A stretch of DNA of 64,000 nucleotides from an uncultured delta proteobacterium (GTDB lineage: Bacteria; Desulfobacterota; Desulfobacteria; Desulfobacterales; JAFDCJ01). Position numbers and translations under genes: made by a program. Below are positions 48,388 through 54,802 of the stretch, piece after piece; positions within the stretch are counted from its first letter, which is position 1; the number at the start of each line of letters is the position of its first letter. The notes under the pieces were generated by a model. It ran no database searches. It had not been told where the DNA came from and saw only the letters and a list, made by a program, of their open reading frames with translations. The DNA is taken from positions 32,001 through 96,000 of the forward strand of contig CAVYNY010000001.1 in NCBI GenBank assembly GCA_963769935.1, in the 5' to 3' direction.

Positions 48388-50916
48388 ATGCTGCGTGGAA
48401 AACTGCCTTTTTCAACTCTGGTACTGGTTGCCATAACCGTTGCGTTTATTGCGGGCCATATCCTCTTTGATGTGGATTTGCTGCAGCCTTTGGAATACAG
48501 GGTGTACGATTGGATGAGCCGCCTGCGCCAGCGCAAGGCCGGCGACCAGGTTATCGTCCTGGCGATAGACGACCAAAGCATCCAACAGCTCGGCGGCTGG
48601 CCCTGGCCCCGCTCCTACATCGCAGAAATGGTTCGCCTGCTCTCAGACAGTGGCGCTCACACGATTGGCCTTTCACTTTTGTATCCCAGCCGCGAGTTAA
48701 ATCCCGGTCTGCAGGAAATTGAAAATATTAAAGCAACACTGAATGATTTACCGTCAAAGTCCGACCGCAAATCACTGAGCAAAATTACCGGCATGCTGGC
48801 GGAAGCCGAAGAAAAGCTAAACCATGATAATCAGCTGATATCAGCCATCCGCAGTGCGCGCAATGTCGTCCTGCCGCTGTGGTTTACCCTCGGCGGTTTG
48901 GCGGATGACAAATCTGAACGGCTGTCGGGTTGGCTGAAAATGAATTCCATTGAATTAAACGACACTGCGGATAATAAGGATCGCCTGCTTGCGGCCGATA
49001 GCGGTTTTCGCGGCATTTTAAATAATCACCGGATAACCGCCAGCCGGATTACGGAACCATACGATGATTTGTCCACCAAAGCCGGTGCCCTGGGACACAT
49101 CAACCTGATCAGCGACCAAGACGGCATCGTTCGCAAAATGCCGCTGTTGATTTCCTATCAGGACAGGGAATTCGTATCCTTTGCTTTCCAGGTAGCCAGA
49201 AAATATGCGGGCGGCCGCTTGAGCGATACAAAGGTGGAACCGACCCGACTCGTCTTAAGGCACCTGCAGATTCCCACAGAGAATAACCACCGGATGTTAA
49301 TCGATTACGGAGGACAAAATTCCAATATTAAACAGTTTTCATTTGCGGATGTCCTCAAAGGCAAAATAAATCCGGATGAATTCCGTAAAAAAGTCGTCCT
49401 GTTAGGGGTTACGGCCGGGGGGGTGTCCCAACAGTACCACACGCCTCTCCTATCCGACGTTCCGGGCCTGACCATCGAAGCCAATGTCGTGGAAAATATC
49501 ATCAACGGCAAATTTATCGCGCGTCCTGCCTGGGTCTTTTTCCTGGAGATTCTGGCGTTATTGTATTTCAGCATTTTTCTAATTTTCGTCATCCCGAAAG
49601 TTTCACCCCGGATCGCAATGCTGATTTTAGGGATCTTTTTGCTGACCTGGGTCGGAGCCGGTATAATTTTGTTTGTCGCCAATGGTACCTGGCTGAAAAT
49701 TCTCGCACCTGTATTTCTATCGATCATTGGTTTTGCCCTTACCAGCCGCCAACGCAACATCGCCGAAAAGCAGGATGAAAATGTGGAGCTCAACAAGAGC
49801 CTGGGCTTGGCCTTGCAAGGCCAAGGTATGCTGGACATGGCTTTTGAGAAGTTTTTAAAGTGTCCGATCGAAGATAAAGCCGTGCAGAACCTGTTGTACA
49901 ATCTCGGCTTGGATTTTGAACGCAAACGAATGACCAACAAGGCGCTTTCCGTCTATCGCCACATTTTGAAGGCTGATAACTTCAAAGACGTCAAGGAGCG
50001 CATAAAGAAGCTCATTTCGCTGGAAAATACGCTGTCGATGTCCGGGGCAGCCGCCAAAAAAGAAACCACCTTTTTATTGCAAAACGGCACCACCAAGCCC
50101 ACCCTCGGGCGGTACGAGATCCTGGAGGAACTGGGGCAGGGAGCCATGGGCACGGTTTACCTCGGCCGGGATCCGAACATCAATCGCGAGGTCGCCATCA
50201 AGACCGTCAACTACGCGGAAATTGCCGTCGATGAATTAAACGATGTCAAAGCACGGTTTTTTCGGGAAGCTGAAGCGGCCGGCAAGCTTTCCCATCCAAA
50301 CATCGTAACGATCTATGATATGGGTGAGGACCACGACATGGCCTACATTGCCATGGAACTGCTAAAGGGCAAAGAACTGACCCACTATTCTCAGAAAGCG
50401 AATCTGCTGCCGTTAAAAAGGGTTATTAAAATAGTCGGTGCGGTAGCCGACGCCCTGGGATATGCACACAGCCAAGAGGTGGTGCACCGCGACATCAAAC
50501 CGGCTAATATAATTCTGTTGGACGACGATCTGGTCAAAGTTGCCGATTTCGGCATCGCGCGGGTCATGTCTTCATCCAAAACGCAGACAGGCGTCATATT
50601 CGGCACACCCAATTATATGTCCCCGGAACAGATTGCAGGCAAAAAAGTGGATGGCCGATCGGATCTTTTTTCGCTCGGGGTGGTTTTTTACGAACTGCTT
50701 ACCGGTGAAAAACCATTTAAAGGGGATAGCATGACGGCCCTGCTGTACGCCGTATCCAATACAGAGTATGTCCCGCTGTCTGAAACCGCTCCCAAAACCC
50801 CCCCCTGCTGCACCGAAATTGTCGAGCGGCTGCTCTCCAAAGGCGTCTCCAAACGTTATCAGACGGCTTCCCAGGTGATCAAAGAGGTCCAGTTGTGCCT
50901 GGAGACCTTGAATTAA
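48388..50916 (+). CDS. CHASE2-domain membrane Ser/Thr protein kinase (Hanks type)
   Basis: CHASE2 LAIDDQSI..GWPWPRS, DQDGIVRK, KKVVLLG; three TM helices; kinase LGQGAMG, VAIK, HRDIKPAN, DFG, YMSPEQ, DLFSLG. Confidence 0.93.
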   Translation: MLRGKLPFSTLVLVAITVAFIAGHILFDVDLLQPLEYRVYDWMSRLRQRKAGDQVIVLAIDDQSIQQLGGWPWPRSYIAEMVRLLSDSGAHTIGLSLLYPSRELNPGLQEIENIKATLNDLPSKSDRKSLSKITGMLAEAEEKLNHDNQLISAIRSARNVVLPLWFTLGGLADDKSERLSGWLKMNSIELNDTADNKDRLLAADSGFRGILNNHRITASRITEPYDDLSTKAGALGHINLISDQDGIVRKMPLLISYQDREFVSFAFQVARKYAGGRLSDTKVEPTRLVLRHLQIPTENNHRMLIDYGGQNSNIKQFSFADVLKGKINPDEFRKKVVLLGVTAGGVSQQYHTPLLSDVPGLTIEANVVENIINGKFIARPAWVFFLEILALLYFSIFLIFVIPKVSPRIAMLILGIFLLTWVGAGIILFVANGTWLKILAPVFLSIIGFALTSRQRNIAEKQDENVELNKSLGLALQGQGMLDMAFEKFLKCPIEDKAVQNLLYNLGLDFERKRMTNKALSVYRHILKADNFKDVKERIKKLISLENTLSMSGAAAKKETTFLLQNGTTKPTLGRYEILEELGQGAMGTVYLGRDPNINREVAIKTVNYAEIAVDELNDVKARFFREAEAAGKLSHPNIVTIYDMGEDHDMAYIAMELLKGKELTHYSQKANLLPLKRVIKIVGAVADALGYAHSQEVVHRDIKPANIILLDDDLVKVADFGIARVMSSSKTQTGVIFGTPNYMSPEQIAGKKVDGRSDLFSLGVVFYELLTGEKPFKGDSMTALLYAVSNTEYVPLSETAPKTPPCCTEIVERLLSKGVSKRYQTASQVIKEVQLCLETLN

Positions 50917-51057
50917 AAAAGAGGTAAAGATCCGCGCGGAATGTACCGATAGTAATTTTTAAAGCGACCGGCCGAGCCAACCGCAAGATCAAACCACCGG
51001 CAAATAATTCAACACCTGGAAAATTTCTATAACTGGATAAAAATCAATGGAGGGACC

Positions 51058-51399
51058 ATGCTCAAAATTTTAGTGAAATTAAAAGACAAGGAGCTCAAAA
51101 CCTTGGAAACAGATAAAACGGAAATTACCATTGGGCGTAATGAAAACAGTGATATTCCCATCAATAACCTGGGGGCCTCGAAAAAGCATGCCAGGATTTT
51201 CCAGCGCAACGGGGAGTATATTCTTGAGGATCTAAAAAGCACCAACGGCACCCTCCTGAATAACAAAGGCATTATCACCGCCAAGTTAACCGGCAATGAT
51301 GTCGTAACTATTGGTAAACATCAGCTTTTTATAACCATAGAGGATGGCAGAGATGCCACCACAGCCTTTGCCGAGAAGACCATCAAAATTTCATTCTGA
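51058..51399 (+). CDS. Stand-alone FHA-domain protein
   Basis: ITIGR, SKKHARI, DLKSTNGTLLN. Confidence 0.92.
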   Translation: MLKILVKLKDKELKTLETDKTEITIGRNENSDIPINNLGASKKHARIFQRNGEYILEDLKSTNGTLLNNKGIITAKLTGNDVVTIGKHQLFITIEDGRDATTAFAEKTIKISF

Positions 51400-51503
51400 A
51401 AATTTGTAATTATCCGTCGATACGTTCTCAAGAAAAAATATTCGATGTTACTAGAAATACTTTCGTATAATAAGTTCATACTAGTGCGGAAGGAGGATTG
51501 GCC

Positions 51504-52022
51504 GTGGGCGTGAGAATGTATCCGATCGAAATCGATGAGAAAATGTGGCATTTCCTGCAGCAAAATGCCGAACCGTTTGTGGATACACCCAATTCGGTGC
51601 TGAACCGGATTTTGTTCGGAGCGGACGGAAAAAAAGACGATGCGGCCGCTCTGTATACGATTCCTTCGGTTAACATCGAGGGATTGCCCAAATCCCTCTC
51701 ACAAATTTTGGAAGTCGTTTATGAAATGGAGGTCAACGGCTACAGCCGCATCGAGGCCACCAACCGCGTGGCAAAAAAGCGCGGCACGGCCCCGCAAACC
51801 ATTACCGATAAATATTGCCGCCAGCTGGGTAAAAGAGCCCACGAGATCGATGAATTATTGACGGAGCCGGGTTACCACAGTTTTAAAGATCTTCTGACCA
51901 GCAAATTTTCCGGCCATAGCGGTCTCGTCGACATGTATTTTGACAGCATGCTGTCGGATGCCGATGATGCGGAATTTGTCGCGCCGCAAATCCAGGAGTT
52001 CGAGCCGGCATCCGATGAATAG
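51504..52022 (+). CDS. Hypothetical protein with N-terminal ribbon-helix-helix (SeqA-N-like) pattern
   Basis: IEIDEKMWHFLQQNAEPFVDTPNSVLNRIL; RBS aggagg at 51491-51496; start could be 51498, 51504 or 51516. Confidence 0.55.
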   Translation: MGVRMYPIEIDEKMWHFLQQNAEPFVDTPNSVLNRILFGADGKKDDAAALYTIPSVNIEGLPKSLSQILEVVYEMEVNGYSRIEATNRVAKKRGTAPQTITDKYCRQLGKRAHEIDELLTEPGYHSFKDLLTSKFSGHSGLVDMYFDSMLSDADDAEFVAPQIQEFEPASDE

Positions 52023-52030
52023 CATAAACT

Positions 52031-53215
52031 TTACTTCGACCCCGCCCCACTCGATTTCTTATATAAGGGCGAGATTTCGCGCAAGGTGGCAACCACCTTC
52101 TTTAACGATTCCAACAGTAAATCTACCTCGTCTTCCGTGTTGTCCACCCCAAATGAAATCACAAGTGTTCCCTGGGCATCAGCATGACTAAGGCCCAATG
52201 ACAGCAGCACGTGCGATGCTCTCAGAGAACCGGTGGCGCAAGCCGACCGGGTCGATACCGCAATACCGTCATCATCCAGCATCAGCACCACGCTTTCCCC
52301 TTCTATATACTTGATGGAAACTGAAACCAGGTTCGGCAAACTGAATTGATCGTGGGAGTTTATGATGTATTCATCGACATAACCGGGCAATTCAGCAATG
52401 AACTTATCTTTGAGCCTCCTTAAATGCGCCAGACGTGCGTTGAGATCTCGTTCGGCAATCTCAGCGGCTTTTCCCATGGCAATGATCCCGATCAAATTTT
52501 CAGTTCCGGCCCGCTTGTTGTTTTCCTGGACGCCGCCGTCCAGCAGCGGAAATACCCGGGTTCCACGGCGAATATACAGTCCCCCGACCCCGCCGGGCCC
52601 ATAAAAGGTATTGGCGGCCAGGCTCAGCAGATCAACGCCGAGCGCCTGAACATCGATGGGCACAACTCCGACTGAATCGACGGCATCCGTATGAAATATC
52701 ACTTTTTTTCGGCGGGTAATGCGTGCAATCTCCTCAATCGGCTGCATGGTACCGGTTTCGTTATTGCTGTGCATGATGGAAACCAGAATGGTCTCATCCG
52801 TAATGGCCTCGGATACGTCCTGCGGGTTTACCCGTCCGGCTGTATCCACCGGCAATGAGGTTACCCGGAAGCCCGCCGAATTTAAACGGCGCAGGCTTCG
52901 GATGACCGCATTGTGTTCAATGTTGGAGGTGATGATGTGTTTGCCTTTTTCGGAATTGGCCAGCGCTGCGCCTTTTATGGCATGATTTATAGATTCGGTG
53001 CCGCCGGATGTGAACACAATTTCCTTGGGTGCATCCGCGTTGATCAGCTTTGCCACCGACCGGCGCGCCTGTTCGATGGCTTCGGCGGCCTGCTCACCGG
53101 CCCGATGCTGGCTGGAAGGATTGTGATAATCCCTTTTTATGGCTTCAATCATCGTTTCCTTGACTTCCGGCAGAAGGGGGTTTGCTGAGATATGATCGAA
53201 ATTAATAAATTTCAT
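52031..53215 (-). CDS. iscS: IscS/NifS-type cysteine desulfurase homologue lacking the PLP lysine
   Basis: HNPSS, FTSGGTES, IEHNAV, MHSNNETG, RAGTEN, STRSACATG..SHVL; ATG at 53215 overlaps the iscU stop (TAATG). Confidence 0.88.
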   Translation of the reverse strand: MKFINFDHISANPLLPEVKETMIEAIKRDYHNPSSQHRAGEQAAEAIEQARRSVAKLINADAPKEIVFTSGGTESINHAIKGAALANSEKGKHIITSNIEHNAVIRSLRRLNSAGFRVTSLPVDTAGRVNPQDVSEAITDETILVSIMHSNNETGTMQPIEEIARITRRKKVIFHTDAVDSVGVVPIDVQALGVDLLSLAANTFYGPGGVGGLYIRRGTRVFPLLDGGVQENNKRAGTENLIGIIAMGKAAEIAERDLNARLAHLRRLKDKFIAELPGYVDEYIINSHDQFSLPNLVSVSIKYIEGESVVLMLDDDGIAVSTRSACATGSLRASHVLLSLGLSHADAQGTLVISFGVDNTEDEVDLLLESLKKVVATLREISPLYKKSSGAGSK

Positions 53216-53727
53216 TAGTGATCCTCTTCCAGACTCGACTGGCACGCATCGCAAAATGTCGCATTTTCGGCCAGCTCGACATCGCAGTACGGGCAGTAGC
53301 ATTTATCCCCGTGGGTGTGCTCGTGTTCATCCTTGCGCCTGGGTTCGGCCCGAATAATACCGGCTTGGCGGTCCTCATAATTTTTGATCGCCATGTGCAG
53401 CGCATCGGCCCCTAGGTTGGAGCAGTGCAGCTTGTTTTTGGGCAACCCCTCCAGTGCGGCAGCCACGTCTTTGTTGGTAATTTTTTTGGCTTCTTCAATA
53501 GTTTTGCCGGCGGCAATTTCAGTCAGCATACTTGACACGGCAATCGCAGACCCGCAGCCAAAGGTCTGAAACTTGATATCTGCTATGCGCTCGTCCGCCA
53601 CTTTCAGATAAATCGTCATCATGTCGCCGCACAGGGGATTGCCGACCTCTCCGATCCCGTCGGCATTTTCGATCACTCCCACGTTTCTGGGATTACGGAA
53701 ATGATCCATAACCGTTTCGTTGTACAT
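53215..53727 (-). CDS. iscU: IscU/NifU-N Fe-S scaffold with C-terminal His-rich and zinc-ribbon extension
   Basis: MDHFRNPRNVG, GNPLCGD, FGCGSAIA, LPKNKLHCS; tail HEHTHGDKCYCPYC..FCDAC; RBS ggagga. Confidence 0.92.
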   Translation of the reverse strand: MYNETVMDHFRNPRNVGVIENADGIGEVGNPLCGDMMTIYLKVADERIADIKFQTFGCGSAIAVSSMLTEIAAGKTIEEAKKITNKDVAAALEGLPKNKLHCSNLGADALHMAIKNYEDRQAGIIRAEPRRKDEHEHTHGDKCYCPYCDVELAENATFCDACQSSLEEDH

Positions 53728-53770: not shown

Positions 53771-54802
53771 TCAATCTGCAATCTTCAATACTTTGGCGCC
53801 TCTGATTTTCCCCTCTTTCAGCTCTACCAGCGCCTGGTTTGCATCTTGCAGAGCGAATTCCTGGACCTCCGGTTTGATGGGAATCCGCGCGGCCAGCTCT
53901 AGAAATTCAGCGACATCACGCCGGGTCACGTTGGCCACACTTTTAATTTCCTTTTCCATCCATAGATGTCCCGGATAATCGATATCCAAGAGCGACTTCT
54001 TGTCGGATTCTTCTTTGCGAATCGCATTTATAACCAATCTGCCGCCACTTTTCAAGTTATTCAAAGCTTCAACCACCGGTTGCCAAGCCGGGGTGGTATC
54101 AATGATGCAATCCAGTTTTTCCGGTGCCGGCGTCTGCGTGGCCCCGGCCCAGCAAGCGCCGAGTTGCCGGGCAAAATCTCTTTCGGTTTTGCTCCTGGCA
54201 AAAACGAAGACCCTGGTGTTGGGAAATTTATGCCTGGCCATTTTCAAAACCAGATGGGCTGACGCACCAAAGCCGGTCAATCCCAAACTCAAGCCATCCT
54301 GAATCCCGGTCAGGTGCAGGGACCGATATCCGATGGCGCCGGCACACAGCAGCGGGGCCGCCTGGGAATTCGTGAAGGTCTCTGGAATCTGATGGGCAAA
54401 GTCTTCCGATACCGCGGCAAATTCGGCATACCCGCCCTGGGCGTCCCGACCGGTGGCCCTGAACTCATCACATAGATTTTCAGAACCATTTTTGCAGCTG
54501 GCGCAGTGACCGCAGGCCGAATAAATCCAGGCCATTCCGACGCGGTCGCCTATTTTGAGGCGATGGGCCTCGCTGCCCTTTTGTATTACCCGACCGACGA
54601 CCTGATGACCTAAAATAATCGGCAAATGCGGCGGCGGCGTGCGGCCCTCGATTTCATCGAGTTCGGTGTGGCAAACACCACAGGTAGATACTCTTATCAG
54701 AATCTCGTTGGCGCCCGGGACCGGCTCCCGAAGATTCACAAGCTCCAGCGGGTTTTTATTTGAGTCCATGCTGCTGATTCGATTCAATACCATGGCTTTC
54801 AT
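53771..54802 (-). CDS. Zinc-dependent alcohol dehydrogenase family protein
   Basis: CGVCHTE, GHQVVG, CGHCASC..NLC, APLLCAG, GFGASAH. Confidence 0.92.
   Translation of the reverse strand: MKAMVLNRISSMDSNKNPLELVNLREPVPGANEILIRVSTCGVCHTELDEIEGRTPPPHLPIILGHQVVGRVIQKGSEAHRLKIGDRVGMAWIYSACGHCASCKNGSENLCDEFRATGRDAQGGYAEFAAVSEDFAHQIPETFTNSQAAPLLCAGAIGYRSLHLTGIQDGLSLGLTGFGASAHLVLKMARHKFPNTRVFVFARSKTERDFARQLGACWAGATQTPAPEKLDCIIDTTPAWQPVVEALNNLKSGGRLVINAIRKEESDKKSLLDIDYPGHLWMEKEIKSVANVTRRDVAEFLELAARIPIKPEVQEFALQDANQALVELKEGKIRGAKVLKIAD

Follow-up and report, generated by a model that had tools for sequence, protein, structure and literature searches.

Cysteine desulfurase-like proteins in known Fe-S assembly systems

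Cysteine desulfurases rely on a Lys, a carboxylate-binding Arg and a loop Cys, to which distinct roles are assigned in the accessible text of PMC8918507. An inactive, Lys-less IscS of the kind discussed here is already known from one archaeon, Archaeoglobus fulgidus. According to the same text, A. fulgidus IscS2 is inactive and PMP-bound, and its D199K variant still holds PMP; one Cys ligand was proposed to come from the protein, sulfide was put forward as a hypothetical source of sulfur, and the mechanism was left open (PMC8918507). The available parts of PMC7585200 likewise describe it as an inactive donor of a Cys ligand. In what is accessible of PMC8918507 and of bioRxiv 10.1101/2024.03.20.586028, this IscS is treated as an oddity, and its mechanism, cofactor and sulfur source are open.

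Two other systems are relevant for comparison. MIS (MisS-MisU; IscS2-IscU2 in Methanosarcina acetivorans) contains an active desulfurase and is presented, in the accessible part of PMC13066941, as the least studied system. In the accessible text of PMC7585200, M. acetivorans IscS1 is also Lys-less, and it is insoluble without its IscU. SufB/SufC-only systems (SMS), conversely, are proposed to assemble clusters from sulfide without a desulfurase, and as far as the available text of bioRxiv 10.1101/2024.03.20.586028 goes they complement Escherichia coli only with sulfide. In the same text, A. fulgidus iscS2U2 failed to complement an isc/suf mutant of E. coli, also when Na2S was supplied. Since the canonical M. 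thermoacetophila iscSU pair failed as well, the complementation test may be insensitive.

A literature search, from which subscription journals were mostly absent, returned no account of a bacterial Lys-less IscS family or of a tailed IscU. What is new here is the breadth of the Lys-less form in Desulfobacterota, a five-Cys tail on its IscU, an R323 variant of the mobile loop and a partly complementary distribution of SufB.

The Lys-less IscS-like gene and its family

The window, that is, the whole stretch of 64,000 nucleotides analysed, belongs to a Desulfobacterota genome and carries on its minus strand, at 52031..53215, an IscS-like gene for a protein of 394 aa with a type I cysteine desulfurase fold. 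The window translation gives a single open frame without stop from 53215 to 52031, and the HTDAVD and DHISANP motifs and the loop STRSACATGSLRASHVL, all of them reported in the initial annotation together with the intact frame, are present as described. The loss of the Schiff-base Lys was its main observation, and it is borne out: the codons AAT ACC at 52612-52607 encode N202-T203 within SLAANTFYGPGGVG, and the canonical S-x-H-K reads A-A-N-T. The eroded PLP motif, L199-A200-A201-N202-T203 (52607..52621, minus strand), corresponds to a canonical x-S-G/A-H-K, in which S200 and H202 are presumably the phosphate-binding residues; these are replaced together with the Lys.

The other features lie on the same strand. 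D177, which we take to be the Asp contacting the PLP ring, and D180, at the position of the Gln that is presumably bound to PLP-O3', span 52676..52687, and H101, the presumed ring-stacking His, is encoded at 52913..52915. V352 (52160..52162) occupies the position of the substrate-carboxylate Arg, and the mobile loop T322-V336 (52208..52252) contains C326 and, in place of a canonical Gly, R323. These last two changes, the missing Arg and the Gly-to-Arg replacement, had escaped the first reading. Taken together, T203, V352 and D180 stand where an active enzyme has the Schiff-base Lys, the substrate-binding Arg and the PLP-O3' Gln, and the phosphate His/Ser are gone as well. The most conserved surface is formed by Y303-I-E305-G-E307 (52295..52309) and R379-x-x-S382-P383-L384 (52064-52081), which we assume to be the IscU-binding face of IscS.

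A fold-type I aminotransferase class V fold was found for the window protein by an AF2 model (pLDDT 80.9, with loop 324-347 below 50) and Foldseek, with TM 0.87-0.90 to NFS1 and E. coli IscS and 0.86-0.89 to A. fulgidus IscS. Its scores stay below the curated cut-offs of TIGR03402 (449.4 versus 530.75), TIGR02006 (366.7 versus 643.2) and NF002806 (286.8 versus 304). The best PDB sequence matches (9WEP, 9WEW, 9WFE) belong to a variant series of a Lys-bearing desulfurase; some of its members (9WEW, 9WFE) show, at position 9 and at the carboxylate Arg, the A>I and R>V changes that are natural in the window protein. The literature search found no paper that explains these variants. A scan for promoters and terminators gave nothing above chance.

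Likeness to A. fulgidus IscS2 (4eb5, 4eb7, 4hvk; D199K, 4r5f) extends beyond the fold. The two proteins share 42-44% identity, a DxxSAxP start and the loop Cys. Both have lost the Schiff-base Lys and, just before it, the His, which is N in either protein, and neither has the O3' Gln or the carboxylate Arg; in the PDB sequence 4eb5 the same four positions show Q>A, H>N, K>D and R>L. Differences concern the substitutes, since the window protein has K>T rather than K>D and Q>D rather than Q>A, and the loop Gly, which is Arg in the window. The available text of PMC7585200 and PMC13066941 defines MisS by its activity as a PLP cysteine desulfurase, whereas the window protein is without the residues for it and scores below the NifS/IscS cut-offs; a reported Lys-less exception is M. 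acetivorans IscS1, described as uncharacterised in the accessible part of PMC7585200.

Losses of several catalytic residues, with a canonical copy elsewhere in the genome, might be expected of a sequencing error or a recently decaying pseudogene. Close homologues that all retain Lys would fit such a decay, and the opposite is seen. In an alignment of the query with its 120 best matches (77-99% identity, n=121), Lys occurs at position 203 in 0/121, T being present in 120 and N in one; position 202 is N and position 180 is D in 121/121, Arg at position 352 is found in none (V in 115, L in 6), R323 is present in all and C326 is invariant. The gene is also covered by contigs from one DNA run and three RNA-library runs, independent of the assembly. 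Two contigs across the motif (X4 record 16, X5 record 25), for which all differences were listed, have zero at 52607-52612, so neither carries the CAT AAA by which the initial annotation would have recognised an error. Within the gene, 9/12 listed contig differences are silent. The three RNA libraries, from one sediment study, cover both genes in a slightly different strain, although such libraries can contain DNA. The agreement of independent contigs at the motif and the absence of Lys in 121/121 exclude an assembly error. Purifying selection is also evident: among the first 40 of 80 related loci, 39 of them long enough for comparison, dN/dS is 0.030-0.087, hence below 0.09, in 29/39 pairs, synonymous sites being saturated in the other 10. 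With a clade that covers at least 33 families, the chance of error or decay is negligible; the Lys-less gene is real and conserved.

The same pattern holds in a pooled set of 178 Lys-less and 51 Lys-bearing copies, drawn from two collections that may have some genomes in common, after removal of duplicates, type II enzymes and fragments below 330 aa. Each of the Lys-bearing copies (51/51) has K, R, Q and H. Conversely, R352 and Q180 occur in 0/178 Lys-less loci and H202 in 9, while C326, H101, D177, E305 and E307 are kept in 178/178, R379, S382 and P383 in nearly all, and G72, T73, T238 and N152 in most. Position 180 is occupied by D/A/G/T/S/C and position 203 by Q/T/P/S/A/N in the Lys-less loci, a wide variation that fits relaxed sites.

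These residues bear on the possibility that some B6 chemistry persists, with a non-covalent PLP or PMP acting on a substrate other than L-cysteine (e.g., an amine without carboxylate) and R323 or D180 substituting for the lost groups, so as to charge C326. The invariant H101 and D177, the mostly kept G72, T73, T238 and N152 and the fixation of R/K323 in 120 loci could be so explained, as could the A>I and R>V changes shared with the Lys-bearing variants 9WEW and 9WFE. However, no catalytic Lys is conserved: no substitute is fixed near the site and the sole near-invariant Lys, K81 (97%), is common to normal enzymes. Moreover, positions 180 and 203 vary freely, as relaxed rather than re-tasked sites would, R323 does not co-occur with D180, and A. 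fulgidus IscS is inactive although PMP-bound, its D199K variant still holding PMP (accessible text of PMC8918507); an activity of this kind is quite improbable. A self-plugging D180-R323 salt bridge was also considered and rejected, since the occurrence of R323 does not follow that of D180 across subclades and the loop is modelled with pLDDT below 50.

The Lys-less form is annotated in databases as an ordinary cysteine desulfurase. Among the best 150 cluster representatives, 129 have K, R and C, 14 have C without K and R, and 7 show other patterns or are fragments; named members in the Lys-less clusters (10 clusters looked up) include Nitrospirae, Latescibacterota and Odinarchaeum. A FastTree phylogeny of 193 rows places 104 Lys-less sequences and P0126, which is Lys-bearing and Arg-less, in one clade (support 99), and five other Lys-less sequences in a separate one; the latter includes P0143, the stand-in nearest A. 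fulgidus IscS (431.6 bits to 4eb5). An IQ-TREE analysis of 48 rows agrees with these clades (97 and 99). A constraint that joins both groups in one clade is not rejected (p-AU 0.674) and has a likelihood 7.6 lnL higher, in a data set with the trait columns kept and A. fulgidus IscS itself absent. The subclade of the window, characterised by R/K323, iscU as first gene and a tailed IscU, is supported at 100 by FastTree and IQ-TREE alike.

P0126 keeps the Lys without the Gln and the Arg, while several basal members (L203, L204, L207, L218, L227 and L229-L231) have the His without the Lys. P0126 and the His-keeping basal members are possible intermediates, which suggests, as far as extant sequences can, that the substrate pocket was eroded before the Lys. 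Archaeoglobus-like copies with an SSND motif occur in two Desulfobacterota genomes (L226:1705-2880, L233:1646-2857), with IscU partners of 261-262 aa that carry an unrelated C-terminal domain.

The IscU partner and its five-cysteine tail

Directly upstream of the Lys-less gene, on the same strand, lies iscU/misU (53215..53727), which encodes a scaffold of 170 aa. It passes the TIGR03419 cut-off (197.3 versus 187.9) and has the complete NifU_N ligand set, C33, D35, C58, K99, H101 and C102, invariant in 26/26 aligned sequences; in this respect it corresponds to the MIS scaffold, which has all ligands. Its best structural match in Foldseek is A. fulgidus IscU, with 67% identity, the listed matches covering the scaffold domain only. 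As in MIS, the window pair consists of iscS and iscU only, with no chaperone, ferredoxin or carrier gene in the unit; as in A. fulgidus, the IscU has a single scaffold domain and the host is a sulfate reducer.

The initial annotation had suggested checking the linkage to iscU in homologues, and an iscU is adjacent, directly upstream of the Lys-less gene, in 76/76 informative loci among the 80 closest; in the other 4/80 no more than 84 bases separate the start of the gene from the end of the locus. It had also described translational coupling, which stands for the window, where the iscU stop overlaps the start of the IscS-like gene by one base (TAATG), but not for the relatives, in which the iscU stop precedes the aligned start by 2-343 bases. 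The overlap is therefore local to this genome, and conserved coupling is ruled out. The order iscU then iscS of the window subclade differs from that of A. fulgidus.

A further difference is found at the C-terminus. After a flexible, His-rich linker, the window IscU ends in a five-cysteine tail, CxCPxC-x10-CxxC (C143, C145, C148, C159 and C162; 53242..53301, minus strand), unmatched by the 135-138-residue A. fulgidus PDB chains. The tail is zinc-ribbon-like, with CPYC and CxxC knuckles, although its PF13240 score of 18.6 bits is below the cut-off of 25; it is modelled at pLDDT about 59-71, and an Atlas search with it returned one low match (0.80), which is uninformative. The five Cys are invariant in the 26/26 tail-bearing sequences chosen for alignment. 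More broadly, among 161 partner ORFs of Lys-less copies scaffold motifs are complete in 153 and the tail motif is present in 131. In the phylum sample described below, at least four tail Cys are found in 64/82 partners of Lys-less copies versus 1/25 partners of Lys-bearing ones, this single case being a different, NifU-like domain; a Cys-rich tail is absent in 18/82 partners of Lys-less copies. No single-domain partner of a normal IscS showed the five-cysteine tail. In the short flanks fetched, no iscU was present at 16/98 Lys-less and 27 Lys-bearing loci.

Once shadow frames are discounted, every neighbour other than iscU is confined to at most 27 of these 80 loci. A zinc-type alcohol dehydrogenase-like gene on the same strand (53771-54802), 43 bases upstream of iscU, has counterparts in 18/80 related loci and can be considered a lineage-level association. 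Converging on the IscS-like gene is an ORF of 174 aa (51498-52022, plus strand), with relatives in 18/80 related loci and no NCBIfam or above-cut-off Pfam match; its N-terminus recalls, to our eye, the SeqA N-terminal domain. Further away, at 48388-51399 on the plus strand, a membrane protein ends in a Ser/Thr-kinase-like domain and is followed by a small ORF that appears FHA-like by eye.

In family f30 (L139, L165, L166, L168) a hypC-like gene follows the Lys-less gene in place of iscU, and at L105:2782-3695 a sulfite-reductase-like gene comes directly after the Lys-less iscS. In some genomes (G071, G134, G195, G163) two or three Lys-less copies coexist, and their partners differ.

Another reading is that of a regulatory or chaperone subunit, which would keep IscU stable or in reserve, or pair with active NifS as a heterodimer, C326 having no role in cluster formation. 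Conservation of the fold and of the presumed IscU face speaks for it, and the insolubility of the Lys-less M. acetivorans IscS1 without its IscU (accessible text of PMC7585200) is in line with this idea. However, C326 is kept in 178/178 loci, the 80 closest loci have one IscS-like match each and no canonical desulfurase gene, and five carrier genomes are without a second type I match, hence this function is very improbable. A heterodimer operon with a tandem canonical iscS was looked for in the 80 closest loci and none was seen.

Genome context, sulfur source and significance

The host genome (G000) is 96.68% complete. A search for a canonical desulfurase, suggested in the initial annotation, found a three-domain nifU-nifS at C19:39118-41132; a second Lys-bearing type I enzyme is encoded on C20, and two further, more distant type II-like enzymes both have HK. 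Thus, the Lys-less pair is a second system in this genome and not the only one. dsrA is present, and no match to the SufB/SufD core was found in the host genome, while A. fulgidus is described with sufCB in the accessible text of bioRxiv 10.1101/2024.03.20.586028.

In one fixed set of 301 Desulfobacterota genomes, a Lys-less copy was verified by residue in at least 95 (94 in 33 families, plus G245). dsrA was found in 73/95 carriers versus 81/206 other genomes; all returned matches were examined for the 154 dsrA-positive genomes and only the top-ranked ones for the 147 dsrA-negative genomes, so the 22 carriers in the latter group are a lower bound and the enrichment in dsrA may be overstated. 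The 81 dsrA-positive genomes without the Lys-less form comprise 74 with Lys-bearing copies only and 7 without a match. Within the dsrA-positive genomes, a SufB core is present in 24/73 carriers versus 60/81 others, and by family majority in 8/22 carrier versus 24/29 other families; these counts pool SMS and full SUF, most positives having a single SufB-like gene. P values for co-occurrence overstate the association, since related genomes are not independent and no species tree was used. Of the dsrA-positive genomes, 21 have neither the Lys-less form nor SufB, 24 have both, and dsrA was not found in at least 22/95 carriers; the counts show tendencies only, and both strict dependence on dsrA and strict exclusion with SufB are rejected. 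SMS, with proteins unrelated to the window pair, is a proposed functional analogue of partly complementary distribution among dsrA-positive genomes, and of the two it is SMS that has in vivo evidence for the use of sulfide.

Other desulfurases also have to be considered. A further type I desulfurase-like match is present in 89/94 carriers, verified by residue as Lys-bearing in 23, so a donor of cysteine-derived sulfur is nearly always at hand; no second type I match was seen in five carrier genomes. The Lys-less copy is the sole type I match in G025, G063, G099 (85% complete) and G277, and three of these four hold an intact TIGR01977-like enzyme (two of them scanned).

The main alternative is a persulfide relay, in which C326 of a catalytically dead protein would take sulfane sulfur from an active desulfurase (canonical NifS or a TIGR01977 enzyme) or from TusA, DsrE or polysulfide, and pass it to IscU. 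The invariant C326, the additional desulfurases in most carriers and in three of the four genomes just named, and C143, the fifth invariant tail Cys, which could carry sulfur, are compatible with such a transfer, which would also account for the failure of the Archaeoglobus pair with sulfide alone. Some relatives point in the same direction: DsrE2-like and TusA-like genes follow the Lys-less copy, without iscU, at L173:166-2206, L174 and L179, and a DsrE2-like gene follows the Lys-less copy and iscU at L129 and L136. Nevertheless, the surroundings of the gene in the 80 closest loci show no conserved gene for a sulfur carrier, the relay leaves unexplained why SufB is less frequent in dsrA-positive carriers, and a relay onto a second scaffold would be redundant where NifU-NifS is complete. 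We regard it as a rather unlikely explanation.

The reading that we prefer, and hold to be moderately probable, is that of a non-catalytic IscU partner, whose loop Cys serves as a transient cluster ligand in a sulfide-fed assembly that runs beside the cysteine-fed NifU-NifS. A desulfurase-dead assembly partner of the A. fulgidus type had been proposed in the initial annotation, and residues, selection, linkage and the published work on Archaeoglobus favour it. Judged from sequence, the window protein falls outside the active IscS/NifS family and would work like A. fulgidus IscS2-IscU. That it is desulfurase-dead is very likely; that it binds the adjacent IscU is, by linkage and conservation, very likely too. 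The weak step is the source of sulfur, probably sulfide: the evidence is correlative (dsrA in this genome and the co-occurrence), and the negative published test with Archaeoglobus speaks against it.

In the mechanism we propose, the Lys-less protein and the adjacent tailed IscU would form an (IscS-IscU)2 complex, in which C326, in line with the proposal for A. fulgidus, may swing to the IscU site and transiently coordinate the growing [2Fe-2S] cluster. The retention of H101, D177 and G72-T73 suggests that the protein probably continues to hold a B6 vitamer (PMP or PLP) without a covalent bond. Sulfide would come from the cell's own Dsr pathway or from the habitat. Assembly from Fe(II) and sulfide needs an oxidation, while persulfide needs a reduction; for this reason the IscU tail, more speculatively, might hold Fe or Zn and accept electrons or supply iron. 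The Lys-less pair would operate alongside the canonical NifU-NifS of the same genome.

Since at least 95/301 genomes carry a form annotated as an ordinary desulfurase, inventories of Fe-S systems in these organisms are probably miscounted. The window pair, mesophilic and with a self-contained Cys-rich tail, offers a direct route to testing sulfide-fed assembly, and it may be for want of such a tail that the Archaeoglobus pair did not work in E. coli. More tentatively, the pair may represent a widespread, sulfide-fed branch of MIS, in which a pseudo-desulfurase lends a Cys ligand to an IscU with a built-in metal or redox tail; in many Desulfobacterota that reduce sulfate or live syntrophically, such a branch could functionally stand in for the SufB/SufC-only system, and a single ancient loss of catalysis, common to it and to Archaeoglobus and other archaea, may lie at its origin.
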